In this document: positions 432 to 63,058 of the stretch, piece by piece
Position numbering within the stretch: position 1 is the first letter of the stretch
How the letters are laid out: each line of letters starts with the position of its first letter
From: a virus
Taxonomy: Duplodnaviria > Heunggongvirae > Uroviricota > Caudoviricetes
DNA: 64,000 bases
IMG/VR virus record: IMGVR_UViG_3300008255_000107
Reading direction: 5' to 3' (one strand)
Program-made: the position numbers and the translations under genes
Notes under the pieces: model-generated
What the model saw: only the letters and a program-made list of their open reading frames with translations
The model's database searches: none
Told to the model about the DNA's origin: nothing

Positions 432-1088
432 CTATAGGACGGGGGTGCTTCGTGTGCCCCCAGGTAAATTAAAATGAATGATTCGGTTTATTTCGTCCAC
501 GTCTTCGGGTGTCACCCCCGCACCAAACAGATTGCCTGATTGGCATATATTCTCTGCAAGTACCTTTTCCAGATCATCGCTTGACCCTAGATAGTCGGTG
601 GGGCATAGCTGCACTTCCCTGGATAAACGCTCCAGATAAGTTCCCGCCAATCGGTCACCGGCGTTCATGGCGTATAGCAGGGTACCTGGTGCAATGATAT
701 GTTCCCTGGGATCACTTAGGGCGTGAAGCAATACCCCAAGTAGTAGCGGTTTCTCAACTATGTGGTAGTTATGAGTGGGATTGCGCTGCAGGTGCCTTTC
801 ACCCAGGTTCATTTCTATTTGCCAGTACCTGTAATCCTCGTCCGGGCTTCCCCTCGTTTCCCGTAGTAGCATTTGGAGGCGGGGTTGTCGGGATGGGGTG
901 TCTAGTTCCTTGCTGTACACATCTCCTAGATGGTGACACCTATCTATGAATCCTTCACCGCAGTCTGGCACAAGGTACACCATACGGTGGGATCGATTAC
1001 CGAACAGTCCTAACCAAAAGTTCTCTTCGAAAACTTTGGAACATATTTCTTGTTCCCAGCGATGTTTCGGATGCTCTTCTAAGGGCAT
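432..1088 (-). CDS. hypothetical protein (218 aa)
   Basis: Long ORF on the dominant strand, no recognisable motif. Confidence 0.5.
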   Translation of the reverse strand: MPLEEHPKHRWEQEICSKVFEENFWLGLFGNRSHRMVYLVPDCGEGFIDRCHHLGDVYSKELDTPSRQPRLQMLLRETRGSPDEDYRYWQIEMNLGERHLQRNPTHNYHIVEKPLLLGVLLHALSDPREHIIAPGTLLYAMNAGDRLAGTYLERLSREVQLCPTDYLGSSDDLEKVLAENICQSGNLFGAGVTPEDVDEINRIIHFNLPGGTRSTPVL

Positions 1089-1500
1089 CGTAAGTACCCC
1101 CCTTATTTTTCCCGTTCCAAAGAACCAAAAGGTAATCGGAGCGATCCACTATGTAACCATTCCGGGCCATGTAATATTTTGGGTCGTACTTCGTATCCTC
1201 GAATAGCACGACTGTACTGGCCGCCTTCTCCATAAGGCGATAGTACTTTAGGCGATCCTGAGGATTCCAAGACAACGGTTGCCCAGACATAGGAACTATC
1301 GCGTTGAAGGGTATGCCCACTTCAACGCATACTTCGGCTACAGCCACGTCCATACCCAAAGCCATCCCTGTAAGTACTAGTCTCGGTTTTAAATCCTCAA
1401 GGTTTTCCTGGATCAAATCTTTTAGGACATCGTACCCATCGGGGTGGTAACCCCATGCTTTGGGACGATGCCCAGAGACACCTAGGACCTCAATACACAC
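997..1500 (-). CDS. SLOG/YpsA-like (DUF1273-like) Rossmann-fold protein
   Basis: GHRPK near the N-terminus and LVLTGMALGMDVAVAEV, resembling the YpsA/SLOG TGHRP and GxxGxD signatures. A paralogous pattern occurs at 47200..47649. Confidence 0.45.
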   Translation of the reverse strand: MCIEVLGVSGHRPKAWGYHPDGYDVLKDLIQENLEDLKPRLVLTGMALGMDVAVAEVCVEVGIPFNAIVPMSGQPLSWNPQDRLKYYRLMEKAASTVVLFEDTKYDPKYYMARNGYIVDRSDYLLVLWNGKNKGGTYDALRRASETSLGTRNMFQSFRRELLVRTVR

Positions 1501-3709
1501 GCTTGGTACGGAACGAGTCCGTCCCCCGTACAGGTACTTTGTGGGCGGCAGCTTTTCTGGCGATGTCTTCCCCGCTTATGAAAAGATCCCTGGACAGATC
1601 CCTGGACAGATCCGTCAGGGCTTCCATTAACGCAGGGTCCTTGAATAGCTCAAAAACTTCTTTTAGGGCTACTGATGCTGCCCTCTCGAGTAATTTCCTA
1701 TCCGTGGACGTTTCTAAGATGTACTCATCGCACTCCGTGTCTTTGGCACCTGCAGAAGCATAGGGGATGTTAACGTCGTAGGGAGGTTTTCTAAAGTGTA
1801 GTAGTGCCCTGCGTACAGGGCCGTAAACCTTTTTCTCCAGACGCGGCCGGAAACCTTCGACTCTAACCATACGTACAAGGTCCCTACCCAATTCCGCCAA
1901 ATCACGGGCATGACCGGTGCATGCTGTTGGACCCTGCAACACGTAGTTGGCTGCATAACCAGCCAGGGATATTAACAGGTGGGACCACATGTTTTCGAAA
2001 TTGTTTAGGTACTCCTCCTCGGCTATCGTCTGGGCACCATCTTCATCGACGAAACAACACACTGGGGCTTTCCCTGTGCAGACCCACACGGCCAAGGCGT
2101 GTCCAATCTCATGAACAGACTTCATGTATGTCTCGGATTCGCTGCCCAAGATCACATCAGCCACACGATCCCTGTCACCTAACATAGGGTAGTACCCATT
2201 CAATTCCGTGTCGCAATTGATAACGAGGGCTTTGTGAAATCTGCTGTATGACACCGTGACGGGCGACTGGGGGTTTTGCTGGTAAAGTGTGGTAAGTATG
2301 AAGGTGCATGTGTCTTGAATGGAGGAGAACACCGGCCGCACACCCTGAACGGGGTATACACCGTTTCTGTACACGTAGTCGTAGACGGATGAGTCAATGT
2401 GTTTGATCTCGAACTCACCCTGAACAGTTCCCAGCACCTGTTCGTCTAGGTTCCGTTTGATCAATTCGCGGAAGTGGGCCTCACCAAGGGTGGGGTACAC
2501 AATATGAATGTTGCCCAGTCTAGCAACTTGTTCTGGAAAAAACAGTTTGGACAGCTCTTTTTTTACGTCGAAGATCGTTATGCGACGGCACCAATCTCGG
2601 TATATGTCTGCTGGAATGAACGGAGAAGTGCTGGGCAAGTTTTCCTCATACACACCATCTAGGTTACCCAGGACAAAAATAAGGTTTTTCCTGAAATCAT
2701 TTTCATAACTGATACGATTGGAAGGGGAGCTGTTGATAACTTTCTCCACGGCCTCCATCAGGCCCTCTACGGTACCATCGTGTGGGTACCCTTTATTGGT
2801 GATGAACTTTGATATTTTTCTAAAGTTTGCACCCAAATCCATTATGTTCTCAGTGCCCCTTCTAGAGTACTCACACATGTAGTACACATTCTCAGGATCA
2901 CGGTATTTCAGATTTTCTAGGAGGTACTCTCTAAGCCAAGGTTCCATGCTAAGCTTGGCTTGGATTAGAGATACTTTTTCCTCTTCCTTGCTAGACTCCT
3001 GGATGCTATCGTAGAACTTATCGGCAGCCTCATCGGTGAGATGCATACCACCGTCCATAACGGATTCCACAAAGGCAGGACTTTCCTTCGCTACCACGGG
3101 ATCTGGGGGTTCCCCCGCTAGATCCTCCAGCATCCTCTCCAAAGCGCTTTCGGCTCTTTTGGAGAACCTAGACACCTGAAAACCGTGAAAGGGGACATAA
3201 CCGAAGTCCCTGCAAGCAGAGTACAGATCGCCCTTGTCCATAGTCTGGACAATGACCCCATCTGACAATATCTGCCAAACGTCTTTGTAACCCAAACCGC
3301 GACGGGACGTACCGTCATTCTCTTTGGTCTTGTATCGTTGGAACTCGTCCAGGACCATGATGCCTGGTAACCCTAGTGATAGATCCATGCAATCCTCATG
3401 CACGGAGTCCAGCAGGGAGTGCTCACCCTCGTGGTCTGAGAATATTTGTTCCAGGAACCTATCTTCCATACCAAGAAACATTTTGAGGTCTCGGACCAGG
3501 TCAGTCTTACCCACACCCGTTGGACCCCACAGATTGATTATGAGGGGGCGGTGCACTCTTTCTGGGGTGACGTACCAGAAGGATATACGGTCGACGATTG
3601 AATCGATCTGATCATCGATACCTATGAACTTATTCTTAAGTTCACTACGTGCGACTTTTAAACGATCCCTGCGCTCAGAGGCCGTTTTAGGGTAGGGGTA
3701 TTGACTCAA
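1490..3709 (-). CDS. AAA+ ATPase fused to an HEXXH zinc metalloprotease (FtsH/M41-like, no TM segment)
   Basis: Walker [14 protein letters not shown] near residue 60 and Walker B-like [16 protein letters not shown] (the FtsH-type HExGH) near residue 540. The 12-nt tandem duplication ccctggacagat x2 at about 1585..1610 encodes LSRDLSRDL. Confidence 0.55.
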
Positions 3710-3927
3710 TTTTTGTACCTGAATGTGATACGACCACGAGAGAGGTCGTAGGGGCTTAACTCAATGACCACACGGTCATCAGGAAGAATGCGAATGAAAT
3801 GCTTACGGATCTTTCCGGAGATGTGCGCCAGCACTTCTGACCCATTGTCCAGCTTTGCTTTGAACCGGTCGCCGCCCAAGGCCTCTGTCACAACCGCTTC
3901 TACTTGGATGCCTTCTTCTTTAGCCAT
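3706..3927 (-). CDS. infA: translation initiation factor IF-1
   Basis: [73 protein letters not shown] aligns residue-for-residue with bacterial IF-1 (AHISGKMRKNYIRIL..GD.V.VELTPYDL..GRI.FR). 73 aa. Confidence 0.9.
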
Positions 3928-4020
3928 GTTTCCTCGTACCCCCTTTGGGGATGGTGTTTGAACTAGTTACTTGAAAACTACAAAGTATATATAGAAACCC
4001 AGTGGTTTTTTAACAAAGCC

Positions 4021-4743
4021 CTATGCTTTTTTACGTACTTCCAGTACAAGGCCACTTCCTGTGTGGACAAACTGAACATCGTAGTCCTCGGGGGACCCGT
4101 CCAAGCTTAACCTTACAAAAGTTCTGTAAACAGGTACACTGCGTGGTGGGTTCTTAACCTTAGTCGCAGGCTTAGCCGATACCCTAGGTTCCTTCTTAGG
4201 GATCTTTTCTGTATTCTTATCCAGGGGTTTGACTCCACCCTCGGGGTAAAGTTTGTGGAATCTTTCTGACGACAAGGCGTCACAGCGATAAGCTACACCG
4301 CGTTGGTCACCCACTACGTCTATGATGTCCTTGTCCTTCATAGAGTAAGGACTGCGGCCCTTGCTTATAAGGTACTCAGCGGTGGCTACGATGCGGTCGA
4401 AGATCTCTCGCTGAAATTTGTTGACAACCCCAATGGCCATCTGAGACCTTCTGAAACAGTCCTGGGAAACTTTGTGCCCTAAGACTGCTTCCACATCGTG
4501 CCTTTTCATATGGGGGTTGTTAGCGATTACTCTGGCGCACTCGTCCCTTCTTTGCGACGATCGGAACCAAGAGTTAACCAGTGGGGGTATTTTTTCCTTC
4601 GCAACTTTTGGCGGAGGAGCTACTGCCGCTAGGGCCATGTCCCAGATGGGGTTGGGTAAGGGATACCCTATCTTGGATTCCAAAACGGATCTTTCCATTT
4701 TTGGATTCTTTTTCAAAAATTTAATGGCCAGAGTTAGGGACAT
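4021..4743 (-). CDS. hypothetical protein (240 aa)
   Basis: ORF on the dominant strand, basic C-terminus. Confidence 0.5.
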   Translation of the reverse strand: MSLTLAIKFLKKNPKMERSVLESKIGYPLPNPIWDMALAAVAPPPKVAKEKIPPLVNSWFRSSQRRDECARVIANNPHMKRHDVEAVLGHKVSQDCFRRSQMAIGVVNKFQREIFDRIVATAEYLISKGRSPYSMKDKDIIDVVGDQRGVAYRCDALSSERFHKLYPEGGVKPLDKNTEKIPKKEPRVSAKPATKVKNPPRSVPVYRTFVRLSLDGSPEDYDVQFVHTGSGLVLEVRKKA

Positions 4744-4791: not shown

Positions 4792-5166
4792 TTAACCATT
4801 TTTCTGCGGACCCCTACGGCGACGGGGTCTGTCCCTCTCAGGACGTTCCCCTTCGGCAGTCGGTTTACGTGGTGGTCTAGGTTTTTCCTTAGAGGCTTCC
4901 TCAGGCTTTCGTGGAGGTGTCCTTACAGTTAGGTTACCGCCTGACCCCATGTTCGCAAAACCAGCCCCTAGGGCTGACCGCTCCCAATGGGATACACTGT
5001 GGTAGGTAGACTTGCACTCGGAGCACACGTGGCGCCAAACAGTTATGCCGCTACCGGGAACCATTATAGGGTCACCTGTTTCGGATTTTTTGGAGAAGTG
5101 CTTGTTCTTGTACTCGGCTACTATCTCCGAGGTGAATATGCACTTGTGGATCTTTATCTTGTTCAT
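4792..5166 (-). CDS. hypothetical small basic protein with a putative zinc ribbon (CSECKS...H..H)
   Basis: ORF only. Arg/Pro-rich C-terminal tail. Confidence 0.4.
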   Translation of the reverse strand: MNKIKIHKCIFTSEIVAEYKNKHFSKKSETGDPIMVPGSGITVWRHVCSECKSTYHSVSHWERSALGAGFANMGSGGNLTVRTPPRKPEEASKEKPRPPRKPTAEGERPERDRPRRRRGPQKNG

Positions 5167-5765
5167 TTTGAATTCCTACGGGCAAAGAGCCCACCTCCTG
5201 CATTCTTCCAACGGGAGTTGGATCGCAGGGGCATGTCTTCTCTGCTAAGAGTGTTTATGGTGTCCGCCACTAGGCGTAACACCTCATCGGGGTCGCCATC
5301 TATCGCAGCATACTCCCGAATTTCTTCTAAAATTTGGCGGGCCCTGTCTTGGTCTATAACGACCAAAGGGTCAGGGTTGACGGGTTGGAAGTACCAATCC
5401 TTTTCCAAAGGTTTGTCGATCGCTGAATCCAGAATCTCCAACCACTGACGCTGTGAAGCTAACCCTTCATTGAATCCCGGTATGATCCTTCCACGGGCGG
5501 CAAGCATCCTCTTAATTTTAGAGGTCATGTACCCGTTGACAGTACCACCTTTTATAGTCTCCAGGATGTAAGGCTTCATGCCGAACTGGCGTATCATCAG
5601 AAGAGTGGTGTCCTCGTCTACACCGGAGAGCCTAGCCACATCGGGTAAAAGTAAAAAGTCTCTCTCAGACAGGTGGACGGCCAGCTTCAGAGGAGGAGCT
5701 TTTTGGCGATGAATTAACTTACGAGGTGGCATCCTATATGTATACCTTTCCTGATACATCCGCAA
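5163..5765 (-). CDS. hypothetical protein (200 aa). The true start may be an internal Met, because the ORF overlaps the upstream gene by about 30 nt.
   Basis: ORF, stop overlaps the next start as ATGA. Confidence 0.45.
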   Translation of the reverse strand: MRMYQERYTYRMPPRKLIHRQKAPPLKLAVHLSERDFLLLPDVARLSGVDEDTTLLMIRQFGMKPYILETIKGGTVNGYMTSKIKRMLAARGRIIPGFNEGLASQRQWLEILDSAIDKPLEKDWYFQPVNPDPLVVIDQDRARQILEEIREYAAIDGDPDEVLRLVADTINTLSREDMPLRSNSRWKNAGGGLFARRNSK

Positions 5766-6987
5766 ACTTAACGGTATCGTTTAACCTGTATAGAGCCCAG
5801 TACTTCTGGGGGTCCAAGGGTCCCTCCCCTAGGAACTTGGTTATCTCCGTGGCTATGATACCCTTTACGTACCTGTCCAGGGTACGGTAGTTGTGCATAA
5901 GCCAGAGTAGGAATAAGTCATACTCCTTTGTGCCGGCATTCCTGATAATAGCAGGAAGTGCCAGACTCAACAAACTGATGGGAAGCTGCACCGACCTACG
6001 CAACTCGATGGATAGGGCCTTAGCTTCTTCAGTGCGCCTACCAAAAGTGGAACTGTAGAAACCCATGTAAGGTATACCGGACTTCTTGGCTACGTACCCG
6101 TTTATTCTGTTGCGGAAGTACAACCCAACATCCGTTAGCTTCTCTTCCCACCAAGGGTCTCCATTAGGCATACCACCTTCAAAGGAACTAGCCTGCTCCA
6201 TCTTGTCATTCACCGCCCACCCACACCAACTAAGGCTGTGTGCGGATATGAGGTCAAGCCAGGCATCGAAGCTATTGAAGTCGGGTACTCCGTCGCCATC
6301 CGCCTCAGACACGCCACACTCACTTATGAATACGGGTAGCTCCGCCTGCAAAGCCCTTAGCAAGCTATTACGATCGGCGTCCTTGTGGGTGGCTGAGTAA
6401 AAGTGAAAGGTGTACATGATGTTTGGCCTGTCTACAGGGTTGTGTAGGGGTGATTCCAGATCCTTACACCAATCAAGAGTACCCACGAGGCACACAGCAC
6501 TGGGGGCAAATGACCTCACTGTGTCTATGGCTTGCTCCGAGTAATGCTTCACGGCCTCCCATATATCCAGTAGGGGCTCGTTCAGAACTTCGTAAATGAT
6601 GTTAGGGATATCCCCGTACTTGGATGCCACTGCTTCCAGAAGGTTTAGGCTTGCACCCAGGTCCCGGAGAGCGTGATGGTTATGAACATCCATGATGACG
6701 TACACCCCCGCAGCAATGGCGGCATCGATGACGGGGAATAGCTGTTCGAGCTCGGCGGCCAAATGCCCAACGTAACCAGTCTCTACCTCATGGGAACCCA
6801 CGGGCAAGCGGATAACATCGCAACCCCATGTTTTGGAAAGATGCTCCACCGATTGGGGGCTCCAGTACTTCTTACCCCACATGCTCCAATACAGGCTCAT
6901 ACCCCGGAGGGATATAACTTGGGGCCCTTGATCTGTAAGTGCTGTGAGTTTACAGTCGATAACCTGTAAAGGCGATATTGTCGTCAT
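5734..6987 (-). CDS. glycoside hydrolase family 5 (cellulase-like) protein
   Basis: VYVIMDVHNHH and NIIYEVLNEP (the GH5 catalytic NEP motif), with a GH5-like (beta/alpha)8 layout. Confidence 0.65.
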   Translation of the reverse strand: MTTISPLQVIDCKLTALTDQGPQVISLRGMSLYWSMWGKKYWSPQSVEHLSKTWGCDVIRLPVGSHEVETGYVGHLAAELEQLFPVIDAAIAAGVYVIMDVHNHHALRDLGASLNLLEAVASKYGDIPNIIYEVLNEPLLDIWEAVKHYSEQAIDTVRSFAPSAVCLVGTLDWCKDLESPLHNPVDRPNIMYTFHFYSATHKDADRNSLLRALQAELPVFISECGVSEADGDGVPDFNSFDAWLDLISAHSLSWCGWAVNDKMEQASSFEGGMPNGDPWWEEKLTDVGLYFRNRINGYVAKKSGIPYMGFYSSTFGRRTEEAKALSIELRRSVQLPISLLSLALPAIIRNAGTKEYDLFLLWLMHNYRTLDRYVKGIIATEITKFLGEGPLDPQKYWALYRLNDTVKFADVSGKVYI

Positions 6988-7050
6988 TGTGGTCCTGCAG
7001 GGGGGTTCATACTTAAGCTAATGTAAAGCTTATTTATGGATTTTTAAACT

Positions 7051-7085
7051 AAAAAGCGCCCTGGAGTACCAGGGCGCCCTAAAAA
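7051..7085. terminator. bidirectional rho-independent terminator hairpin (gcgccctgg agta ccagggcgc) flanked by A/T runs
   Basis: Perfect 9-bp stem at 7056..7077 with A5 upstream and A5 downstream (T-runs on the minus strand). Lies between two convergent or tandem minus-strand genes. Confidence 0.7.
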
Positions 7086-8495
7086 TTATTGGAAGTTTCT
7101 ACGGTAATCAACCAACCAACTGGTACCGTCGTCGTAGGTTACACCTTCTACGCGGTCTACTTCGTTGGGGCCCTGTGAAGGACTGTAACCGGTGCTGCCG
7201 GGGAACTTCCACTCTGCGGGGTTTGCCCATGACCATCCACCAGACCCATCCTGAGACACTCTCATATCAAAAGTATTAACCACACCTGGAGTCACGCCTG
7301 TGATACCGATGGAGGTAACATTTTCAGTAAGGACAATGTCGAAGTAAGAGTCTTGGTACAAGTCCAAAATAAGTTCACCAGACGAGCTTGCAGGTGTGCC
7401 CATGGTCATAACAGGGTACGACCCCGTGACACCTTGAGCACCAGTATCGCCCTGAACACCTGTTTCTCCCATGGGCCCAACAGGTCCTGTGGACCCATCT
7501 ATACCAGTTTCACCCTGTGATCCAGTATCACCTTGTATACCAGTTTCTCCTTGAGATCCGGTTTCACCTTGGGTACCAGTATCACCTTGTGATCCCGTCT
7601 CACCTTGGGGGGCACCTGACGGTCCTGTGGCTCCAGGAGCACCAGTTTCACCTTGTGACCCTGTCTCTCCTTGAGGAGCTCCTGCAGGGCCAGTAGCCCC
7701 TGCTAGGCCTGTATCACCCTGTGGGCCTGTTTCGCCCACACCAGTTTCACCTTGAGAACCCATGGCACCAGTTTCACCAAGAGCTCCGGTAAGACCGCGA
7801 GCCCCTGTGTCACCTTTAAAACCTGTGGCACCCTTAGCACCAGTGGGTCCTGGGAAACCTAGAGGTCCCTGGATACCTTGTACACCTTGGATACCCTGAG
7901 TACCGGTTTCACCTTTGGAACCATCAGTACCCGCGGCACCGGTTTCACCTGGGGCCCCCGTCTCTCCCTGAGATCCGGTTTCACCTTGTGACCCTGTTTC
8001 ACCTTGGGGTCCAGGCCACCCTTGGTATCCTGGGATACCTTGGACACCCGTTTCTCCCTGAGATCCCGTTTCACCTTGAGATCCAGTTTCACCTTTGGGT
8101 CCTACGGGTCCTCCGCTGGGGCCAGTAGCACCAGCTAAACCCGTGTCACCTTGGGATCCTGTTTCACCTTGAGAACCAGTTTCACCCTGAGGGCCAGTTG
8201 CTCCAGCTAAACCAGTTTCACCCTGAGATCCAGTTTCACCCTGGGACCCAGTTTCCCCTTGCGATCCAGTAGCGCCTTGGGGTCCAGTGGACCCTTCAAT
8301 GCCTGTCTCGCCTAGAGGGCCTGTAGCTCCAGGACCCGTATGGCCTTGAGGACCGGTAGCACCAGGTTCACCAGTAGAGCCGGCTTCACCCGTAGCACCC
8401 CATCCTGTTTCTCCTCGCACACCATCAGGTCCGGTGGACCCTACACCGGTCTCTCCTTTCGAATTGGAGATCCATTCTGGTTTAATCTTAGCCAT
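7086..8495 (-). CDS. collagen-like triple-helix repeat protein: about 330 aa of G-X-Y (GETGSQ/GATGPQ) repeats followed by a roughly 110-aa C-terminal globular domain
   Basis: Uninterrupted Gly-X-Y repeats in the translation. N-terminus [16 protein letters not shown] upstream of 8495. Confidence 0.85.
7430..8460. repeat. tandem degenerate 18-nt (6-codon) repeats encoding the collagen-like G-X-Y array
   Basis: Repeated ccagtttcaccttgagatcc, ccagtttcaccctgggaccc and related units visible in the sequence. Confidence 0.8.
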
Positions 8496-9138: not shown

Positions 9139-11118
9139 TCAGGTCACAACGGCTTCCAAGGTGAAGCTGCTGGAGTAGGTTGCGTTAGCCAACCACAGGT
9201 AATGGTAACCCGTAGATCTTGCTAGGAAAGGTCCTACTTCAGGGTTGTCTGTGATGGCTTGGGCATGGTACCCCTTTGAGTACTTATACCTGGCATCAGA
9301 GCTACTGGAAGAGAAACCAGTTCGGACGTTCTCGGTAGCCTGCCGGGGGCTCATAAGGAACAGCTGTTGCTGGGTCCCCCCTCCAGAGGTTATTTGGAGG
9401 GTGTACCTAGAACCAGCGGTCAGAAGCATGGCATATACTTTATAGCTGTTTGAAGCTACTGTGTCCACCAGTGGTGAAAGGTTCCATAGGGTGGCGCCCG
9501 CGCTGATGGCGGTGGTAGTAACCTGGAAGCTACCTGAAAGGTTCAAATTAGTACAACCGGAGAATGTGGCGTTATACACATTACAACCTCTAAAGGTGGA
9601 CCCCACTAAGTCTAGGCCGTCAAAGTTGGCGTGGCTCAAGTCACACCCTATAAAGTCACAGAAGGCAAATCTGGTTAGGGCGGAGAAGTCCACACCCTTC
9701 ATGTCTACACCCATAAATTTGGTATAAGGTAGAGTGTCCCCAGCCCCGGTTATAGCCGTGGCATTTTGGATACTCCCACCACTGTGGGTACCGCCACCAC
9801 CACCTATGGTGAGCTGGGAGTTACCGTAGTCTTCTCCGTTAGAACGGGAGGTGTTTACGTCATGGCACCAGTTCACCCAACATGCAGATGCAGTTACAGC
9901 CTCATTATAGCCATAACCGTTCCAGGAGCTATTAGCGGGTGAGAAAGCACCCCGAGCCTGCGTACCAGGTTCTACGGCTACTCGGGTCATGGAGCTAGTC
10001 CCTGCGGAAGTGACCATACTAGCCGGTAGCACACTGTCGCACAGGGTGGAAGGGTAAGCACTCACATTGTTGTGAGTGAATGTTATGTTACCTACGATGG
10101 TACTTTCCTCGGCAATAAACTGGGATACTCTGCAATCCACGAAGTAAAGGCTACCCAGAAAACCTATGAGGGAAACATCAAGAGCATCTATAGTGCATTT
10201 AGTGAAGGTAAGACTTCCTAAGTAAGACCCAATCATGGTCATGGTGCTGGGACCGTATAAGGAGCATTTTGTAAAAGAGGTACTACTCAAAGTGGTGCCT
10301 GAGCCGAACACCTGAGCGGATATGTGGGAATCGTAAAAGTTTGAGGAGGAGAGGTCACAGTTAAGGGCGCTGTTGGCGTTAAAGTCGCATCGGTAGAAAT
10401 TACAGCTTGTCAAGTTTCTGCTGGTCATACTTGTTAGGAAGGTACAACCAGTAAAGGTAGCTGAAGCAAAAACAGCATCGTTACCCACAAAATAGGGGTC
10501 CAGGAATGTAGTCCCCTCAAAACTAACCTGATAGTATACACCACTAGTAGCCTTCAGGGTTCCACCGTAAAAATATTGACCGGGAGCTATAGTCATGTCA
10601 ACAGCGTGAACATTCGAACCGTTCCAGGTACCGGACCAAGTACCCGTACCTGTCATGGTAGCACTCCACATACCAGCATCGCTCATGTCAAACGATACAG
10701 CCGTGAAGTTCCCAAAAGCGTTACTACCAAAAGTGGTGGCTACGCAGGACCAACCGGTAACTGTTGTCGGAGAGGAGAATGTGAAGGTCGAACCATTCAT
10801 GACGGCCTGGTCGAGGACTATGTTGTCGTACCCCGTTAAGTCGGCCCAGGTGCACCCTGTCACCGTAGCACCCGTGAAGTCGGCGCCCGTTAGGTTAGCA
10901 CCCGTGAAGTCGACCCCACTAAGATAGGCGAAAGAGAAAATAGCCCCACTCAGGTTGGTACCCACAAAGCTAGCACCACTGAGGTTAGACTCGGAACTAG
11001 GGGCACCCGTAGTCATCATGCCCATAAACACGCCGTTGGATAGATCCAGACCGGCCATGCCCGAGGCGGCACCACTGTAAATGATGCTGCCATCGTTCTT
11101 ATTTTTAACGACTGCCAT
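9139..11118 (-). CDS. beta-helix / pentapeptide-like repeat fibre protein (659 aa)
   Basis: Multiple A(N/D)(L/F)xx-type repeats (ANLTGADFTGATVTGC, SGASFVGTNLSGAIFSFAYLSGVDFTGANL) typical of right-handed beta-helix or pentapeptide repeats. Gly/Ser/Thr-rich. Confidence 0.6.
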   Translation of the reverse strand: MAVVKNKNDGSIIYSGAASGMAGLDLSNGVFMGMMTTGAPSSESNLSGASFVGTNLSGAIFSFAYLSGVDFTGANLTGADFTGATVTGCTWADLTGYDNIVLDQAVMNGSTFTFSSPTTVTGWSCVATTFGSNAFGNFTAVSFDMSDAGMWSATMTGTGTWSGTWNGSNVHAVDMTIAPGQYFYGGTLKATSGVYYQVSFEGTTFLDPYFVGNDAVFASATFTGCTFLTSMTSRNLTSCNFYRCDFNANSALNCDLSSSNFYDSHISAQVFGSGTTLSSTSFTKCSLYGPSTMTMIGSYLGSLTFTKCTIDALDVSLIGFLGSLYFVDCRVSQFIAEESTIVGNITFTHNNVSAYPSTLCDSVLPASMVTSAGTSSMTRVAVEPGTQARGAFSPANSSWNGYGYNEAVTASACWVNWCHDVNTSRSNGEDYGNSQLTIGGGGGTHSGGSIQNATAITGAGDTLPYTKFMGVDMKGVDFSALTRFAFCDFIGCDLSHANFDGLDLVGSTFRGCNVYNATFSGCTNLNLSGSFQVTTTAISAGATLWNLSPLVDTVASNSYKVYAMLLTAGSRYTLQITSGGGTQQQLFLMSPRQATENVRTGFSSSSSDARYKYSKGYHAQAITDNPEVGPFLARSTGYHYLWLANATYSSSFTLEAVVT

Positions 11119-11136: not shown

Positions 11137-14100
11137 TCAGAATGAAACCTTGGATACGGTCACGTGTGCCATCCATCTGGTATCCACCCCTGCTGTACTT
11201 GGTACTGAAATGTCAAACAAAAGCCCAGTAGCACCGATACCCACGTCGACTCCCTGCAACAAGTTATCGTTTGAGCAACCCGTGTAGGAAGCCAGCACAC
11301 TGCTGGTATCAATGTAACTTTCATCCGTGGTCAGGATGCCTTCAAAATGCTGCACAGCACCAATAGCACCCGTGTAACCCTTGGCCACCACTTGGGCTCT
11401 TACCGAGTAAGAGGTATTTGGGAGCAGGTTGTACTGGGCATCAGCGTGGATACCTGTGGTACCCTCAAGCAGCAACGACTGCCCGGTGATACCGGTGTCG
11501 TCTGTGAAACCACGAAGGATGAAGTCTGAGGTTTGGGCATCACCACGGTTCTCGAACTTTCCGTTAGCGTGGGCTATTTCGGAAATGTGGGTGGCCTTGG
11601 CACCCCTACTACCCAGAACTGTGGCGTAGTCAGCCCCTAAGGTATCCGAGTCGTTGGAGTTATAGATACCCTGATGTGTACCCGTGCCACCTACGTCACA
11701 ATCACTAACATTGTGCAAGGATAGATTGGTACCAGACCCCATGGTAGACCTGTTGAAGGCCGTCATGGCTGACGTGATGGTACCACCTGAGACGTAACCG
11801 GACATACCCGCTTCCACTACGGAGTTGGTGACATTCCTTACGTTCGAATAGGACACTGCTCGGATTGCAGCCATGTTGCCCGTGAAAAGGGTAGTGTGCT
11901 CGGAGGATGCCACCGAGGATTTCTCTGACCCACCAGCTCCGGTTATACCGCGAGAAGAATCAATACTAACTGAGTTGGGTCCTTCCAGAAGGTTACAATC
12001 CCGAGAACTACTTATCCTACTGTACTCTCCACTGTGTATTCTGCTGTTCCCAAAGGAAGCCATAGAACTGAAGTTAGAGGATTCCATCGCACCCGAGTAA
12101 CCCGCTTCCATGGAAGCGAATGACGTACTGACCATAAGACCGTTCTTAACAGAACGTAATGAGTCCATGTTAGTACTCTTGGCCGTTATATCCTGGGACG
12201 CGGATATGCTGGTATTGTGGGCGCCCCACATACCGGTGATACCTTGAGAGGAGTCCACGTGCATGTAAGAGTTGGAGTCAGAAAAGTTAACGATCTGCGA
12301 GGACGATACATCGATATGGTTAGAACTGCTAGTTACTCGTACATCCCTGGAACTACCCACCTCAACATAGGCAGCACCACTGCTTAGCTGTACCTGGTGA
12401 GCTGACCTGACTGACGAGTATTGTACTGAGGATATGATGCTGGATTCTAGGACTCCGGACAGAGTGCTGCTGGTAGACCCTGAAATGGCGCCTGAGTAAC
12501 CGGCTTCAATCATGCATTGCTCAGATCCAGTGATATAGGACTGCCTGGAACTAAGCACTGTGCTGTTATGGGAATCAATGTTTTGGCAATCTTCGGAAGA
12601 TGCTAGGAAAAGCATTTCAGATCCATTGGCCACATTCCTGCGCCCGCCAACCATACCGCTGGCACGAACGGCATTAGTCATGCTGTTCTGCTCACCACCT
12701 ATGATAACGGACTCTTCACAGAAGTAAGCCATAAGGTGTTCACGGCCTCCTGCTATGAGGGAGTTGTGGGAGTACCCTGTAATAACACCGCGGTCTACTG
12801 CAAGTATGGAGGAACCCTCGGTGTTACCAGAAACGATAGAGTTCATAGACGATTTTATGGAGCTCCGGGAGCTCATTTCGGATATGGAACTCTCACTGCT
12901 GTTGTGGATGGAGGCATGGTAGGACCCCCCAGAAATGGACACAGAGTAACTGTTGAAGATGCCACTGTAGTCGGTAGCAGGACGAATGAAAGATCCAGCG
13001 GAACCCATAATTACGGCGCTGTTAGATGATTGGACCGTAGAGGCGAAGCAGGCAGCCAGGACAGACTTAGTGGAGTTATCCAGTGTGCTGCTTTCGCTGG
13101 CGGCTATCAAGGAGTCCTTAGCGGAATCCATATTATTGTCTGTGGACAGGGCCAACGCCACGGAGCGATAACTACCCATTACCCGTAAGCCGCTGTCCGA
13201 GCTACTCTGGGTGCAAGCTAGTACAGCGATATCGGTGCTCTTGTCCAGAGTAACGTACGAAGAGGCTGCGGTAAGGATACGGTGGGATGCCGTCAATTTA
13301 ACTTCTGAGCTAGCCGCAATCGAAGCAAAACTTGAAGAAGCCATGTACGTTGATGCCGAAGCACCTATGGTGGCGGTCGCACTATAATACACTTTATTAC
13401 CGGAGGAGGAGCCCGCCACAGATACAGAGGTGCTGTCTATGATGCTGGCCCCGGCTGATCCCGCAATATGGGCGAGACTAGCTGCGGTGATATTCGAATC
13501 ACGGGTACCGTCCATGGACGACACAGCCGCAGACTTTATATAACCACCTGAGGAGGCTTTAATGGAGGTTAGGTTAATGACGTTAGCATAGGTGTTGTAA
13601 ACAGCGGATACGTCGGACCATACTGCATCGTTTACGTAACCAGACACACCTGACCGCACTCCTGAGAATCGGCTATTACGGATGTGACCCCCATCTGAGT
13701 TTCTGAAATCCGCAAAGGTGTTCGCCACCATGGCGCTTCCTACTCTGGAAGTAGCTGCACGGAAAAAGGCGTTAGCCTGTAGGGTAGCACCGTCAGAACT
13801 GTCCACGCCCGAGTAGGTGTTGGACGATTGCATCTGTACATTTCGACTCTGGCCGGCATGGCTATAGGAACTGTTGTAGAAGTATGTATTTTCTGTACCC
13901 TGAGCACTGGAGTGGTGAGAGTACTCCCTAAGGTAAGTGCTTTGTACACCCTGAAGGGTAGAGTAGTTGGTGTTGTACACCTGCCCATTGTAGGAGGCTT
14001 GCACCACGGACTGATGGCTGTAGTCCGTAATCACACAGTCATGGGAAGCTGCCATAAAGGCTTCGTTGGAATCCTGAATGGACGAGTCAGCGGTAGCCAC

Positions 14101-16527
14101 AACCGCTGATCTATCTGACCCCGAAACTTGGGCATTGGATGTACCCAAAAGGGCAGACGTGTTGCTGTGGTCCACATTTCCTTGGTAGGAAGCTAGTATG
14201 GCCACGGCGTTGGTGCTGGAGGTGTTTGAGTCTATGCTGGACTGCATAGAAGAGTTAGTGTCGTCGGTACTGTTGGCATTTGAGGAAGCCTGAATGTAGC
14301 TACGTATACCGTTTACGATCGATGCGTACCTAGACCCACCAATAAAGGATTCTGTGGAATCTTCCATGTGGGTTTCTGAAGAAGCCACCATACCACCGCG
14401 TACAGTTCGCAAGGACGAAGAAGCCAAGTTCCCTAGCAACACACCGCCAAGTCCCATACGGAAGTCACTATCGTGGTTGGCGAAACCAGCACTTAACATC
14501 ATTTCTTTGTAGTTAGTGCTTTGGCCTCCCCCAAAAGAGGATTGGTGGGAGTAGGGTCCCACTCTTAGGCTCCTACCACCAGTAACTGTGGTGGAATCGC
14601 AGTACATAGCAATAAGGTCATTACCGGCAATAGCACCAAATTCGTGGTTAGCCGGTCCTATTATGGACCGGGTCTGGGCCATAACCACTGAGGCAGCGTT
14701 ACCTACCACACTAGTGGACTCTCTAACCCCTGCTATCATGGTTTCAGTGTTACCCGCCATGGAGGTGCCTAGGTAGTTAGCTATGCTTTCATTGGGGAGA
14801 CTCGAAGAACCCTGGAAGAAGTCAGAGTAAGCCCCTGTAAATCCGTCTGGGATTACACCCGATGAAGAGTTCCCTGACGAACGCATCTCTGTCCTTGCCC
14901 CGTATCTTAAATCAGCTACGCTGGAGCTTGCTATCTGAGAAGTACTGGCCAGAGATATGCGAGCACTCTCTGAGGTTCCTATCATGGCCACAGAGCTACC
15001 AGTAATACCTAAATCTCCGGTTCCTACACTTGAACGGGATGAAATAATAGTGCTGAGTTCCGATAATCCTATGTAGGTGCTACTATTGGCTGAGCTGTAA
15101 GAGGATAGGATGGCGGATTCCCTGGATAGGATAATCTGTACCTTGGCGTACCTAGGAGTCCAAGGAGCCTGGGGTATGCCACTATTCATAACGGAGTCAT
15201 AACCCTTGGAAGCGGCGATCAGAGAAGACGTGGTCCCCTCGAGACCGGCGGCAGAGGAACTTGCCAAAATGGAGGAGTACTTTGTGTTTTGGGTTCCGGT
15301 ACCGTTGGACACAGCACATCCCTGCGCGGCGCCTATGAGTACACCATTAGCATTATGGACGTCCACTGCTGATGATCCTAGTACAGCTATCCGCTCAGGG
15401 TAACCTATACCGTAATTGGAGTAACCCTTAGATGCCAAGTCACCTACATTGACACCTATTGAACCCATAATGGCTATGGACTTACCTGCATTAATAAGGG
15501 AGGAAAGAGACGAATGTATGCTGGCGTAGGAAGGGGTCCCCTCATTTACGGCTATGATACGAGATTCGGACGAAGATCCTATATGGGAGGCCGAGGCGTT
15601 CTCTAACCAGGAGTTTTCGGAGGAATCTATGGAAGACACACGGGAACCAGGTACCAAACCTGGAGCAGCTGGTATGGTACCATGAGTGATAGCTGAACCT
15701 GCCGATGCAGTAATGGCTACACTCTGTACGGCTCCCTTTACGTGGGAGTCCGTAGTGGCGGAGATAGCCACGTTTCTAGCGGGACGGCTTGTGGTGATGC
15801 TGGAGGTATCTTCCCCCTCTACGAGGGTATATGTAGAGGCCAATATGGAGGTTTCATCCGTGTAATGGGCCAACACATGTTGGGAGGCCTGTAGAGCGGT
15901 ATTGTACGAGTAAATGGGGTAACTGTACTCTGTAGCTCCACGGATTTCAGCGAGCCCACTGTACCCCGGCATTTGGTTTGAATAGCCTGGTTGTATGGAC
16001 GGAGTGCTTGGTACCCCATTATTGTTCCAAGTAACTGGATCGGATTTGTCAGATTGAGTGATGTCTATGAAATACCGGTTGTCACCCACGGCCCCAGTGT
16101 AACCTGTGGTGGCTTGGATGATGCCACGATTAGCCAGAGAAATGCGAGCGTTACTGGAACTGTAGATACCGCTTGCTATGGCTAATTCTTCGGCCAGGTT
16201 GTCATTTCCACCGATGATAACGGTGTCGTTTGACTCCCCACGGATGATACCCCGTACACCTGCCATAACTGATGAATGTATGGCGTGCTCCACAGTACTG
16301 TCCTGAGTGGATATTTTGGAGCTGTACGCAGTTATAACGGTGGAAGGTTCCACGCCCGTGTAACCGGCGGTTAGAATGGGAGCGTCCCAGGTGCCCGTGG
16401 CACCCCGGAGATCTAAAGATCCTCGCGCTTGGTCTAGGAGGATGGACCCATCGGAGGAAAGGTCGTACGCCAGCTGGAGATCTCCACCGAGTTCTCCGTC
16501 AATCCATTCAGGTTTTACTTTTGCCAT
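11137..16527 (-). CDS. giant (1796 aa) Ser/Thr/Gly-rich repetitive structural (fibre or surface) protein
   Basis: Single uninterrupted ORF of low-complexity S/T/G/A/N-rich degenerate repeats. N-terminus MAKVKPEWI, shared with the collagen-like protein. Confidence 0.7.
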   Translation of the reverse strand: MAKVKPEWIDGELGGDLQLAYDLSSDGSILLDQARGSLDLRGATGTWDAPILTAGYTGVEPSTVITAYSSKISTQDSTVEHAIHSSVMAGVRGIIRGESNDTVIIGGNDNLAEELAIASGIYSSSNARISLANRGIIQATTGYTGAVGDNRYFIDITQSDKSDPVTWNNNGVPSTPSIQPGYSNQMPGYSGLAEIRGATEYSYPIYSYNTALQASQHVLAHYTDETSILASTYTLVEGEDTSSITTSRPARNVAISATTDSHVKGAVQSVAITASAGSAITHGTIPAAPGLVPGSRVSSIDSSENSWLENASASHIGSSSESRIIAVNEGTPSYASIHSSLSSLINAGKSIAIMGSIGVNVGDLASKGYSNYGIGYPERIAVLGSSAVDVHNANGVLIGAAQGCAVSNGTGTQNTKYSSILASSSAAGLEGTTSSLIAASKGYDSVMNSGIPQAPWTPRYAKVQIILSRESAILSSYSSANSSTYIGLSELSTIISSRSSVGTGDLGITGSSVAMIGTSESARISLASTSQIASSSVADLRYGARTEMRSSGNSSSGVIPDGFTGAYSDFFQGSSSLPNESIANYLGTSMAGNTETMIAGVRESTSVVGNAASVVMAQTRSIIGPANHEFGAIAGNDLIAMYCDSTTVTGGRSLRVGPYSHQSSFGGGQSTNYKEMMLSAGFANHDSDFRMGLGGVLLGNLASSSLRTVRGGMVASSETHMEDSTESFIGGSRYASIVNGIRSYIQASSNANSTDDTNSSMQSSIDSNTSSTNAVAILASYQGNVDHSNTSALLGTSNAQVSGSDRSAVVATADSSIQDSNEAFMAASHDCVITDYSHQSVVQASYNGQVYNTNYSTLQGVQSTYLREYSHHSSAQGTENTYFYNSSYSHAGQSRNVQMQSSNTYSGVDSSDGATLQANAFFRAATSRVGSAMVANTFADFRNSDGGHIRNSRFSGVRSGVSGYVNDAVWSDVSAVYNTYANVINLTSIKASSGGYIKSAAVSSMDGTRDSNITAASLAHIAGSAGASIIDSTSVSVAGSSSGNKVYYSATATIGASASTYMASSSFASIAASSEVKLTASHRILTAASSYVTLDKSTDIAVLACTQSSSDSGLRVMGSYRSVALALSTDNNMDSAKDSLIAASESSTLDNSTKSVLAACFASTVQSSNSAVIMGSAGSFIRPATDYSGIFNSYSVSISGGSYHASIHNSSESSISEMSSRSSIKSSMNSIVSGNTEGSSILAVDRGVITGYSHNSLIAGGREHLMAYFCEESVIIGGEQNSMTNAVRASGMVGGRRNVANGSEMLFLASSEDCQNIDSHNSTVLSSRQSYITGSEQCMIEAGYSGAISGSTSSTLSGVLESSIISSVQYSSVRSAHQVQLSSGAAYVEVGSSRDVRVTSSSNHIDVSSSQIVNFSDSNSYMHVDSSQGITGMWGAHNTSISASQDITAKSTNMDSLRSVKNGLMVSTSFASMEAGYSGAMESSNFSSMASFGNSRIHSGEYSRISSSRDCNLLEGPNSVSIDSSRGITGAGGSEKSSVASSEHTTLFTGNMAAIRAVSYSNVRNVTNSVVEAGMSGYVSGGTITSAMTAFNRSTMGSGTNLSLHNVSDCDVGGTGTHQGIYNSNDSDTLGADYATVLGSRGAKATHISEIAHANGKFENRGDAQTSDFILRGFTDDTGITGQSLLLEGTTGIHADAQYNLLPNTSYSVRAQVVAKGYTGAIGAVQHFEGILTTDESYIDTSSVLASYTGCSNDNLLQGVDVGIGATGLLFDISVPSTAGVDTRWMAHVTVSKVSF

Positions 16528-16749: not shown

Positions 16750-18399
16750 ATGGCCACCGGAGTAACTTACCAAGACCTTGACGTGCTTACCCTTAATAGC
16801 AGTGAGAGTTATGTAAACTGTGTTTTCCTTCGAATTAAGAAGATCCAGGTAGCTTCCGCGGGCTCCAATGCCATGGTCACCTGTACATTTACAGACTGCC
16901 CTGACGTACTTTGCGATTTTAGTCTGATGCAAACTTGCGTGGTTACACGCTGTACCTTCACAGTCAACCAAAGCGGCTCTACATTGTACTGGTACTCCAC
17001 GACCGCCACGGATTCTTATTTCTACAAGACTTCGTCCAGGACCGTGTCACTAAGCGCAGGGACTTACACTGGGGGCGTCATAGCGGGAAGGTTCAATGTA
17101 GAGTACAATGGTTCCCCTGTGGTCCTTACGGGTGTTACTGTTAAAGGGTCCCCTGCTTACGACGGGGTACTTTTGGGTAACAACTTGAATATGACGGACT
17201 GTGTTTTCGAAAACATCGTTACTGTGTCCGTAAGTAACCTGAGCCTTGCAAACTGCTCTGGTCCAAAGCCGTCCAAGGTGACTTTGCAGAATTGCTCAGG
17301 AGGAGGTGTCTCCGGGGGTACGTACGACATCCTGATCATGGACGGTGCTAACTCATCTTTTTCTTTCCAGCCCTCTAAAGTTTCGGTGGTAAACTACCCT
17401 AGTTATGGCACATGGAGCTCTGTCCCTCTTACCACCGCCGTGGATACTATACAATACCCCGTACCAATGAACATGACAAGCTGCTCTGTTTATGGTGCTA
17501 AGGGGATAGATGTGCGTAAGCACAGCGTAGCGTGGACTGACGTAACATGGCAGGCTCCCGCCCACAACTTGAAGTTGCCCAGGTTGTCCCGTATCATTCT
17601 AGGCCATCACGCATCCCCCACTACTAACCCTTTTCGAAACTGTGACCTGACGGACTCTCCTCGATTAGAATTCACAGCGGGTGGGTTCTACGTAAGAGAT
17701 TTTGACATGTCCGGCTCCAACCTCTACAACACTCCCTCTGGGGCCATGTTTATGGGGAACAATGTTAAGGGCAGGGGGTGCAACATGAGCAACCTTTTCC
17801 GAGCGGATATCTCCAAGGGTACCACCATTAGGGGTTGGGATTTCCGGGATGCTGTATGGAACGACGCTTATCTAAACGGCCTTAAATTTGTGGATTGCGA
17901 CTTCCGCGGAACAGTGTTTAACGGCGGATACATGCAAAACTGCTCTTTTGCTAATACCTCTTTCAAAGGGGCCAATTTCAATTTTATAGACACCACAGGT
18001 ACGGATTTCTCCGGCGCCGACATGACTTCTGGTTATACCAGGTTCGATGACCAACTATCGGGATGGTCCCCATGGCCATACCAGACCAGCTCCAATGCCT
18101 TTAGCGTTGGATCGGGGCAATCCGCTGCGTTCAGCGTAATTGTTAATTACATAGGACGTAGCATATCCACAGGTCTACTTTCTGGTATCGTCTGGGTCCT
18201 TTCCGAAAAAACGGCAGACAGCCACTATATACAGAGTCTGGTGTCCGTGAATGAGGATTATCTGGATGCGAATGCCATTCAGAAAATCACTGTAAGTGCG
18301 GGTGCATCCATAACTTTCGCTGCGACCCCGGTTGCGGGAAGATATTACCTGGTGGTCAAAAACACAGGAAGCACTACCAGGACTGTGCAGATGCAGTAG
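16750..18399 (+). CDS. pentapeptide-repeat-containing fibre-like protein (549 aa)
   Basis: C-terminal half contains consecutive pentapeptide repeats (FRGTVFNGGYMQNCSFANTSFKGANFNFIDTTGTDFSGADMT). Followed by a terminator. Confidence 0.6.
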   Translation: MATGVTYQDLDVLTLNSSESYVNCVFLRIKKIQVASAGSNAMVTCTFTDCPDVLCDFSLMQTCVVTRCTFTVNQSGSTLYWYSTTATDSYFYKTSSRTVSLSAGTYTGGVIAGRFNVEYNGSPVVLTGVTVKGSPAYDGVLLGNNLNMTDCVFENIVTVSVSNLSLANCSGPKPSKVTLQNCSGGGVSGGTYDILIMDGANSSFSFQPSKVSVVNYPSYGTWSSVPLTTAVDTIQYPVPMNMTSCSVYGAKGIDVRKHSVAWTDVTWQAPAHNLKLPRLSRIILGHHASPTTNPFRNCDLTDSPRLEFTAGGFYVRDFDMSGSNLYNTPSGAMFMGNNVKGRGCNMSNLFRADISKGTTIRGWDFRDAVWNDAYLNGLKFVDCDFRGTVFNGGYMQNCSFANTSFKGANFNFIDTTGTDFSGADMTSGYTRFDDQLSGWSPWPYQTSSNAFSVGSGQSAAFSVIVNYIGRSISTGLLSGIVWVLSEKTADSHYIQSLVSVNEDYLDANAIQKITVSAGASITFAATPVAGRYYLVVKNTGSTTRTVQMQ

Positions 18400-33085: not shown

Positions 33086-33901
33086 TTACTTGAACATACC
33101 ACTGCGGAATATGTGACTCTTAGGAAGTGAATCGGTATCGTAGTGTGATGTGCCGCTAACCGCCTGGTCTGAGGTAACACCCACATGCCTATCAAGCGCG
33201 TGGTGAGGCCCAGTTACACCATGGTGGTACAACGCAGGCCCAGTTACACCCCGATCCGACAGGCCTTCTTCCGATGGGTCGTTGTATCCTTGTATTCCCA
33301 AGGTGGCTATTTTCCCATCTTTGGCGATAGCAGCAGTCTCGTGTTGCATCACGTGGTAGTACAGGTCCCTGGTCCACTTGGCATCCACAAGGGCATTGTG
33401 AGCCCCTACGGGGTCAGGTAGCGAACTAGCACCACTGGCGTCCATGATCTGTTTAACGTCCCTGCAGTACATGGGGAATCCCTTAGGTAGATCCACCATC
33501 TTACCAAAAAGCCAGCAAAACACGACCCAGTCATATGCCGCATAATAGCCCCAGAACTCTGGATTGGTGGTTTCCGCATGGACGAATTCAATGATCTCCT
33601 GAGCGATAACCCTCTTAGGCTTACGCAGCCTTCGGACGGGAAGATCTTTCAGAACATTAGCCTTTACCCAGGAGTCTGCTTTGGATGAGTCAAATTCCTG
33701 GGATACAGCATAATACTCCCTGCCTGAATCGCTCACTATCCCTATGGATACCAAATCGATGCTGCAGGGGTATTCTATGAATTCAGTGTCCAGGAAAAAC
33801 TTCACATTCCCACGTCCACCCATGTGGACCCGGGAAGCCCTGGGGGCAGAAGTTTCTTCCTGGTATAACCATTCTTCTTTGATCTTAGCCATCTTCTTCA
33901 A
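33086..33901 (-). CDS. DEDDh-family 3'-5' exonuclease
   Basis: Exo I FLDTEFIEY, Exo II AYDWVVF and Exo III HNALVDAKW motifs. N-terminus MAKIKEEWL. Confidence 0.6.
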   Translation of the reverse strand: MKKMAKIKEEWLYQEETSAPRASRVHMGGRGNVKFFLDTEFIEYPCSIDLVSIGIVSDSGREYYAVSQEFDSSKADSWVKANVLKDLPVRRLRKPKRVIAQEIIEFVHAETTNPEFWGYYAAYDWVVFCWLFGKMVDLPKGFPMYCRDVKQIMDASGASSLPDPVGAHNALVDAKWTRDLYYHVMQHETAAIAKDGKIATLGIQGYNDPSEEGLSDRGVTGPALYHHGVTGPHHALDRHVGVTSDQAVSGTSHYDTDSLPKSHIFRSGMFK

Positions 33902-34148: not shown

Positions 34149-34202
34149 GATACTCTCCTCGTGTAAAATGAAAAGGGGCCTGGATCGACCCCTTTATGGT
34201 TT

Positions 34203-62838: not shown

Positions 62839-62839
62839 A

Positions 62840-62910: not shown

Positions 62911-62949
62911 TAAGATAAGAAATAAGGAAAGGAAGGGTACATTACATAA

Positions 62950-63025: not shown

Positions 63026-63027
63026 AT

Positions 63028-63058
63028 TAAAAAACCCCCAGTTTTCACCGGGGGTTTC
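63028..63058. terminator. hairpin (aaaccccc agttttcacc gggggttt), a bidirectional terminator-like structure inside the tRNA cluster
   Basis: 8-bp stem flanked by A-run and T-run. Confidence 0.5.

Follow-up and report, generated by a model that had tools for sequence, protein, structure and literature searches.

A gene for translation initiation factor IF-1 was recognized in a stretch of viral DNA of 64,000 nucleotides (nt), i.e., the IMG/VR virus record IMGVR_UViG_3300008255_000107. This whole stretch is called the window below. The predicted product is an IF-1 orthologue of the bacterial type. It probably works as a functional initiation factor on a large phage of an unsequenced lineage, where it would supplement or replace the IF-1 of the host. 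The gene was placed as follows.

3706..3927, minus strand: IF-1 (infA-type) coding sequence, 73 amino acids (aa), ATG start

An earlier reading of the letters alone, i.e., the sequence-only reading, had proposed a virus-encoded IF-1 with exactly these ends without giving a strand, and the open reading frame (ORF) was found there on the minus strand. The IF-1 motif quoted in that reading was correct over its 15-residue first part, whereas the quoted VEL reads IEL.

The proposed identity held in searches with hidden Markov models. In Pfam, PF01176 matched at 91.1 bits (E 3.4e-26, cutoff 30.2) and was the sole family reported, and no CSD or S1 family appeared at E <= 0.01. The NCBIfam infA equivalog TIGR00008 scored 104.2 bits (cutoff 61.15) and was covered at model positions 1-69 of 69. 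The aIF-1A and eIF-1A models of NCBIfam gave 16-33 bits against cutoffs of 91-202, which places the protein outside these families. Twelve distinct sequences of solved IF-1 matched at E 4e-26 to 5e-13. The AlphaFold2 model, built with a 42-sequence alignment, had a mean confidence (pLDDT) of 91.4. The prediction has five strands, with a short helix placed between the third and the fourth (E7-18, E21-26, E31-36, H38-42, E52-57, and E64-70), and by this model the protein is a single S1-like OB domain of the IF-1 fold, which has ~70-75 aa. In the Foldseek search against PDB, all 11 top neighbours were bacterial IF-1 (TM 0.75-0.93), including 1hr0_W of Thermus thermophilus and ribosome-bound Escherichia coli IF1 (9fco_I, TM 0.93, 0.7 A). 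The eIF1A and aIF1A structures ranked after them, and no cold-shock or S1 protein ranked above IF-1, eIF1A, or aIF1A. Because IF-1 orthologues gave the best matches in both sequence and structure, the reading as a generic S1 or cold-shock protein, which the sequence-only reading had named as its possible refutation, was excluded.

The residues that contact the ribosome were compared next to this fold. The contact list of the T. thermophilus 30S-IF1 complex was taken from bioRxiv 10.1101/2023.10.27.564398, citing Carter et al. 2001, and its numbering corresponds one-to-one to that of the window IF-1 from Ile7 on. Contacts to helix 44 (h44) of 16S RNA were kept at Ala16, Arg41, Arg46, and Arg64, those to uS12 at Tyr60 and Asp61, and those to the 530 loop at Gly38, Lys39, and Arg66. 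K3 and E4 were also kept, and R23 is conservatively replaced by K23. Arg69 and Arg64 of E. coli, which were singled out in a review (PMC4611024), are both present, the former as R70 of the window protein.

These conserved residues bear on another possible role. IF-1 and cold-shock proteins have the OB fold in common, and the protein might mainly be a general RNA chaperone of the cold-shock type instead of an initiation factor. The IF-1 of E. coli acts as an RNA chaperone and can make up for csp deletions in Bacillus subtilis. A homologue of the RNA-quality-control protein Ro60/TROVE is also encoded in the window. However, conservation falls on the residues that contact the ribosome, no cold-shock or S1 family was matched, and the top structural neighbours were all IF-1, eIF1A, or aIF1A. 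The chaperone role is thus considered very improbable, and an initiation factor is the preferred reading.

The position of the gene was examined together with its signals and neighbours, which are listed below.

3931..3935, minus strand: Shine-Dalgarno (SD) site GAGGA, positions -8..-4, 3 nt before the IF-1 ATG, by direct reading
3984..4013, minus strand: weak match to a sigma-70-like promoter (TTAAAA-18-TATACT), between IF-1 and its upstream neighbour (gap of 93 nt)
1490..3709, minus strand: gene of a 739-aa Clp/FtsH-like AAA+ protein, TTG start, 4-nt overlap (TTGA) with the IF-1 stop
997..1500, minus strand: YpsA/SLOG-family gene (PF06908, 38.3 bits), third gene of the co-directional array
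4021..4743, minus strand: 240-aa ORFan immediately upstream of IF-1, its position kept in relatives
4792..6987, minus strand: upstream syntenic genes, i.e., GH5 cellulase (5734-6987; PF00150, 154.7 bits), 200-aa ORF, and 124-aa ORF

Among 5.8 billion proteins, the closest to the window IF-1 were P0002 (79% identity) and P0005 (75%). Their loci and the window have the same gene order, i.e., GH5 cellulase, three small ORFs, IF-1, and the 739-aa protein, and the start-stop overlap of the last two is also present at both loci. Neighbouring genes are 28-65% identical between the window and these syntenic relatives, against 75-79% for IF-1. By sequence comparison, the P0002 and P0005 elements are distant relatives in which IF-1 was held in place. 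Homologues of the 739-aa gene lie directly after IF-1 at the relatives' loci L111 and L112 (38-46% identity). The ORFs preceding IF-1 in L111, L112, and L113 are 28-29% identical to the 240-aa ORFan, for which no family was found in Pfam, PHROG, or NCBIfam. The order of the cellulase, the 200-aa ORF, and the 124-aa ORF is kept in L112 at 42%, 65%, and 48% identity. At the more distant relative P0026 (L118/L119), a YpsA/SLOG gene 38% identical to that at 997-1500 comes straight after IF-1.

The ratio of nonsynonymous to synonymous substitution (dN/dS) was 0.10 for L111 vs L112, the sole pair without synonymous saturation. For the window vs these relatives, dS was saturated and dN was about 0.19. 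These values indicate that the IF-1 gene is under purifying selection. Its GC content, both overall and at third codon positions (GC3), equals that of the neighbours.

Several replacements weigh against a simple preservation of ribosome binding. Two of the seven listed h44 contacts are replaced, i.e., Pro18 by Gly and Ala20 by Asp, and Asn19 is changed to Gly and His30 to Ser. Because of these four replacements, ribosome binding could be altered instead of simply preserved. Met21->Arg and Met40->Ile are further changes. As a result of the changes at 18-21, the beta1-beta2 loop, LPNAM in bacteria, reads LGGDR in the window and LRGGK in the syntenic relatives (Arg at 18, Gly at 20, and Lys at 21). 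Gly19 and Ser30 are common to all three syntenic copies and occurred in none of 188 presumed bacterial IF-1 sequences, in which Asn19 and His30 are conserved at 96% and 91%. An IF1 loop was described to enter the h44 minor groove, without a statement of which loop it is (bioRxiv 10.1101/2023.10.27.564398). We infer that it is the beta1-beta2 loop, which would place the changes at h44. Since the gene is under purifying selection, the loop and His30 changes appear to be maintained. The core binding surface is predicted to be intact, with one functional loop remodelled and maintained in that form.

These changes raise the question of a specialised factor. In such a case, the remodelled loop and His30->Ser would alter the kinetics of 30S binding or release and favour phage mRNAs, or sustain initiation when host IF-1 is depleted or degraded, perhaps together with the coupled Clp/FtsH-like protease. 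The residues common to the three syntenic copies and missing from the bacterial sequences, the listed h44 contacts Pro18 and Ala20, and the maintenance of the changes by selection are consistent with it. On the other hand, T. thermophilus IF-1 has Pro at the His30 position, so this position is not absolutely constrained, and Pro18 is absent from 35% of bacterial sequences; both positions are tolerant. The substitutions could equally be a co-adaptation to the host ribosome, and the loop motif is no general viral signature. The specialised factor is therefore considered unlikely, and an ordinary IF-1 that supplements or replaces that of the host is preferred.

The motif LGGDRF was considered as a pan-viral IF-1 signature and was rejected. 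It was seen in IMG/VR loci L085-L090 and P0026, but that 8-mer was among the patterns used in the search, and the result is largely ascertainment. A scan with a diverse alignment gave 80 viral IF-1s, in which the loop was mostly LPN, LPD, or LGN.

The expression signals agree with use by bacterial ribosomes. SD-type motifs precede 27 of the 49 window genes vs a background of 14%, and this excess shows that the window genes are built for bacterial ribosomes. At the SD position of IF-1, the relatives have AAGGAG or GAGAGGAAG. The promoter match upstream of IF-1 was not significant, i.e., one site vs a shuffle mean of 4.1. A regulatory leader RNA before IF-1 was also considered and rejected, as the 93-nt leader folded no better than shuffles (z = +0.5) and was not conserved in relatives.

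From these features, the following course is proposed. Phage mRNA would be translated via the SD site, and IF-1 would be made during infection. The gene is probably co-transcribed and translationally coupled with that of the downstream Clp/FtsH-like AAA+ protein. Like cellular IF-1, the phage factor would attach to the host 30S subunit at its A site, which lies between h44, the 530 loop, and uS12, and with host IF2 and IF3 would aid the formation and fidelity of the 30S initiation complex. By supplementing or replacing host IF-1, it would allow phage messages to be still initiated as host gene expression declines.

The 739-aa protein was assigned by remote similarity. Its residues 10-97 and 380-467 matched ClpB, ClpA, and ClpC in PDB, i.e., the second AAA+ module and D2-small. 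In NCBIfam, ClpA was matched at positions 432-514 and FtsH_fam at 414-538, all far below the family cutoffs. The C-terminal region has a HEIGH motif and resembles the FtsH peptidase domain, and the protein matched phrog_4871, 'ATP-dependent protease'. It is therefore a putative soluble ATP-dependent protease or unfoldase with Clp/Hsp100 NBD2-like and FtsH-like parts.

Clp-family genes were searched near other IF-1 genes, in 27 IMG/VR loci with 10-kb flanks and 80 bacterial infA loci with 5-kb flanks. At least one such gene was found in 20 of the 27 IMG/VR loci (L091-L110), which were chosen by peptide patterns from the window IF-1 and probably represent few lineages, vs none of the 80 bacterial loci. 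A complete ClpA/C-type Hsp100 lies downstream on the same strand in 19 of the 27, at 0.8-2.7 kb from IF-1 in 15 loci and ~8 kb in 4; the Pfam domain set was confirmed for two. A ClpP-like gene ~0.5 kb upstream of IF-1 was present in five of the 27. ClpP-like proteases are also common as prohead proteases. No Clp-family gene was found near IF-1 in two Lak phages, two other GenBank huge phages, L084-L090, and L118. In the cultured Sinorhizobium phage Phosso (PV764938, 469 kb), the annotated IF-1 lies just downstream of ClpP-like and MutT-like genes. In this Phosso locus (L205, 112147-120362), the ClpP-like gene is annotated as 'ATPase domain-containing Clp family protein', although its sequence is ClpP-like. 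A comparative jumbo-phage review mentioned ClpP, ClpS, ClpA, ClpX, and IF3, but not IF1 or a linkage of IF-1 and Clp.

The Clp link in the window clade, the 20 IMG/VR loci, and Phosso, set against the bacterial loci, also speaks for the specialised factor described above. A wider speculation is that IF-1 and a Clp-family unfoldase or protease form a conserved takeover module in several huge-phage groups, which in the window clade would be reduced to an overlapping pair of IF-1 and a Clp/FtsH-like AAA+ metalloprotease. The protease would remove a host component, e.g., host IF-1 or another ribosome-bound factor, and the IF-1 with the remodelled loop and His30Ser would replace that component, by which initiation would be reprogrammed toward phage messages. 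This speculation is considered unlikely.

The exact IF-1 protein is also encoded by the contig k141_252269 (208,623 bp) of ENA ERZ27293386, a JGI contig of 20.8 kb (3300025018), and one Logan contig. The window is about the first 64 kb of k141_252269, reverse-complemented, at 99.99% identity. The assemblies of k141_252269 and Logan SRR6053076_137272 both stop within a few bases at window ~63,997-64,000, just past the tRNA cluster. This shared stop at ~63,997 could be a physical genome end or an assembly-breaking repeat.

Whether the element is a virus was weighed by its gene content. The following results tell against it: neither Pfam nor PHROGs gave capsid, portal, terminase, or tail genes in contig positions 1-80 kb of 208.6 kb; the contig had no exact match in IMG/VR; megablast found no DNA relatives among GenBank phages; and the 739-aa and 1796-aa proteins had no tblastn match in GenBank phages. 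The 739-aa protein also had no pattern match in IMG/VR. In addition, plasmid-like sequences of >200 kb were reported alongside huge phages (PMC7162821). The contig could then be a plasmid-like or other extrachromosomal element, or an unusual bacterial genome fragment with the gene as its own infA copy. This was judged improbable by the following. Neither the DNA (megablast) nor the 739-aa protein (tblastn) had similarity to the 72,556 plasmids of PLSDB. The content is typical of phages, i.e., a tRNA cluster with HNH, inteins, nucleotide metabolism, SLT lysin, and ORFans. Ribosomal-protein genes, which adjoin the closest bacterial infA, are absent around IF-1, and no GTDB genome carries the gene. 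With 208,623 bp and the seven tRNAs of the window, the contig resembles huge phages in size and tRNA content (>200 kb with tRNAs). Indirect support also comes from a sister IF-1 on a terminase-bearing contig. In the neighbour-joining (NJ) tree of a smaller sequence set, the three syntenic IF-1 copies group together with a support of 56/100, and next to them is the IF-1 (68% identity) of IMG/VR contig UViG_3300024519_000011 (L084), which carries the terminase large subunit (TerL) and an amidase and has a sigma-factor homologue in common with the contig of the window.

The viral reading is therefore very probable, with the element as a jumbo phage from a lineage not yet sequenced; a plasmid-like nature has a small chance, and a cellular origin a smaller one. 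The 'virus-encoded' of the sequence-only reading is thus very likely by the phage-type content, but it stays at probable because no capsid or terminase gene was present in the 80 kb examined. In the TerL region of L084 (312-4697), two TerL-matching ORFs are parted by a 416-aa ORF, which may be an intron or homing-element insertion.

Apart from IF-1, chaperonin and tRNA genes had been cited in the sequence-only reading, and GroEL, GroES, and seven tRNAs are all present. The chaperonin genes are as follows.

34203-35828, minus strand: GroEL
33885-34148, minus strand: GroES/Cpn10, 87 aa

These chaperonins concern protein folding and not translation. That the element manipulates host translation, as proposed in the sequence-only reading, is a reasonable inference. 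In the window (33885-35828), GroEL is followed by the short GroES/Cpn10, the reverse of the usual groES-groEL order, and a 353-aa ORFan lies just upstream of GroEL. An arrangement of 353-aa ORF, GroEL, and ~82-aa ORF is also found in the relative L200 (13764-15705). Of the seven tRNAs, six are clustered by an HNH endonuclease and the seventh lies elsewhere. In the region 62257-63628 (minus strand), the six take up 790 bp directly beside the HNH gene, i.e., Gln-CTG, Gln-TTG, Met-CAT, Ile-TAT, and two Phe-GAA; the second tRNA-Phe (63555-63628) was called by ARAGORN only, and not by Rfam. The tRNA-Met(CAT) at 63159-63231 was considered as a phage initiator tRNA and rejected, as it has U1-G72 and lacks the three anticodon-stem G-C pairs.

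Genes of nucleic acid metabolism in the window include NAD-dependent ligase (LigA), thymidylate synthase (ThyA), dUTPase, and RNase H-like exonuclease. The large subunit of ribonucleotide reductase (RNR; 1536 aa, 54537-59147, minus strand) contains a LAGLIDADG-type intein and a C-terminal TSCPD domain. In L200 (3551-5261), IS605-family TnpB and Y1 transposase lie between the RNR and ligase genes. The Ro60/TROVE and vWA homologue (48942-50270), matching phrog_850 'RNA-binding protein', is one of the few plus-strand genes; no Y RNA was found beside it or in the whole window at the Rfam gathering threshold, where only tRNAs were found. The 16 kb that follow on the contig encode a sigma-70-type factor and phosphoesterases and contain a Preiss-Handler NAD+ cluster. 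The cluster (L201 1-6533, contig ~73-80 kb) has NAPRTase, NAD synthase, an adenylyltransferase-like gene, and NUDIX/NrtR. A NAD+ cluster with NAD-dependent ligase is the pattern of 'NAD-jumbo phages' (PMC11662467).

An SLT-domain protein (SLT lysin), two peptidases, glycosyltransferases, and pentapeptide-repeat proteins are also encoded. The peptidase genes are adjoining paralogues (45209-46881, minus strand), both phrog_16701. Two large pentapeptide-repeat proteins (9139-11118, minus strand, and 16750-18399, plus strand) flank the 1796-aa ORF (11137-16527, minus strand), which falls in no family of Pfam or PHROG and gave no tblastn match among 50,697 phage records. No family was assigned to about half of the ORFs. 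The GH5 cellulase has a C-terminal extension of ~150 aa and adjoins a collagen-like protein of GETGSQ-type repeats (together 5734-8495, minus strand); the distant relative L112 has kept both.

The origin of the gene was examined by the next-closest proteins. At 75-78% identity, these were metagenomic bacterial infA products in secY-infA-rpsM-rpsK-rpoA clusters, which belong to Fibrobacterota by their flanking SecY, RpoA, S13, and S11. No IF-1 above 72% identity to the window copy was found in GTDB genomes. Fibrobacterota was considered as donor or host and is only a lead: other phyla are within 1-3 residues, the phage clade is not placed inside Fibrobacterota in the NJ tree, and LigA gave no host signal, with 80% and 58% identity to uncharacterised relatives and then <=45% to mixed phyla. 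The phylogeny suggested in the sequence-only reading for the donor lineage resolves neither donor nor host, given the near-equal phyla and the support of the trio. The cellulase in the window is worth a remark beside this lead, since the nearest bacterial IF-1s come from cellulolytic Fibrobacterota.

IF-1 genes are known in phages. According to Al-Shayeb et al. 2020 (PMC7162821), both IF1 and IF3 are found in huge phages, and a 2025 study reported the same for soil huge phages of glacier forelands (PMC11748809). IF-1 was matched in 36 of 50,697 GenBank phage records. The IF-1-like genes there belong to Lak megaphages, Phosso, two uncultured huge phages, and, in a shorter form, Bacteroides phages with GroEL. 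In IMG/VR, at least 225 stretches matched IF-1, some of which are host flanks. 'Rare in phage genomes', as the sequence-only reading put it, is accordingly right overall, but the gene is a published and recurrent feature of huge phages. In the cultured Bacteroides phages DAC16-23 and SJC03, an unannotated IF-1-like ORF lies where the record starts and GroEL where it ends. In DAC16 (MT074137, L204), the IF-1-like ORF is at 627-932 and GroEL at ~176.5-178.1 kb, both annotated as hypothetical. The two genes become neighbours if the linear record is circularised.

Phage IF-1 is thus known but uncommon, and the window gene is a new example of a known huge-phage feature. Its novelty is low because publications on huge phages and GenBank annotations already include phage IF-1, and the presence of the gene alone would not surprise a specialist. 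Phage-borne IF-1 genes were catalogued, and no functional study was found in the literature. The window adds a compact, strongly conserved IF-1 in an unsequenced phage lineage. Its variant residues at or beside the 16S h44 contacts, together with the reproducible genomic link of phage IF-1 to Clp-family genes, lead to testable hypotheses on the takeover of translation initiation.

In comparison with known systems, bacterial IF-1 (E. coli 1AH9 and 9FCO chain I, T. thermophilus 1HR0 chain W, Mycobacterium tuberculosis 3I4O) has the same length and one S1-like OB domain. The solved proteins are 53-67% identical to the window protein, and the contact residues are mostly kept. The differences are in the context, i.e., an ORFan-rich array with the Clp/FtsH-like overlap instead of the secY-infA-rpsM cluster with its ribosomal-protein genes, and in the residues, i.e., GGDR vs PNAM in the loop and Ser vs His30. 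The eIF1A and aIF1A proteins have the OB core in common (Foldseek TM 0.8-0.84, query-normalised), but the window IF-1 lacks their helical subdomain and tails, with 73 aa vs 95-145 aa. Cold-shock and S1 OB folds have only the general five-stranded RNA-binding barrel in common with it. A further counterpart is the IF1 of huge phages (Al-Shayeb et al. 2020, Lak, PMC11748809, and Phosso), which is likewise a bacterial-type IF-1 on a genome of >200 kb with tRNAs, with a proposed role in redirecting host translation and with Clp-family neighbours in Phosso and many IMG/VR contigs. However, the window IF-1 is only 44-57% identical to these, and the genomes have no detectable relationship. Its Clp partner is also different, being a single-module Clp/FtsH-like chimera that overlaps IF-1, whereas a full ClpA/C or ClpP is found elsewhere.

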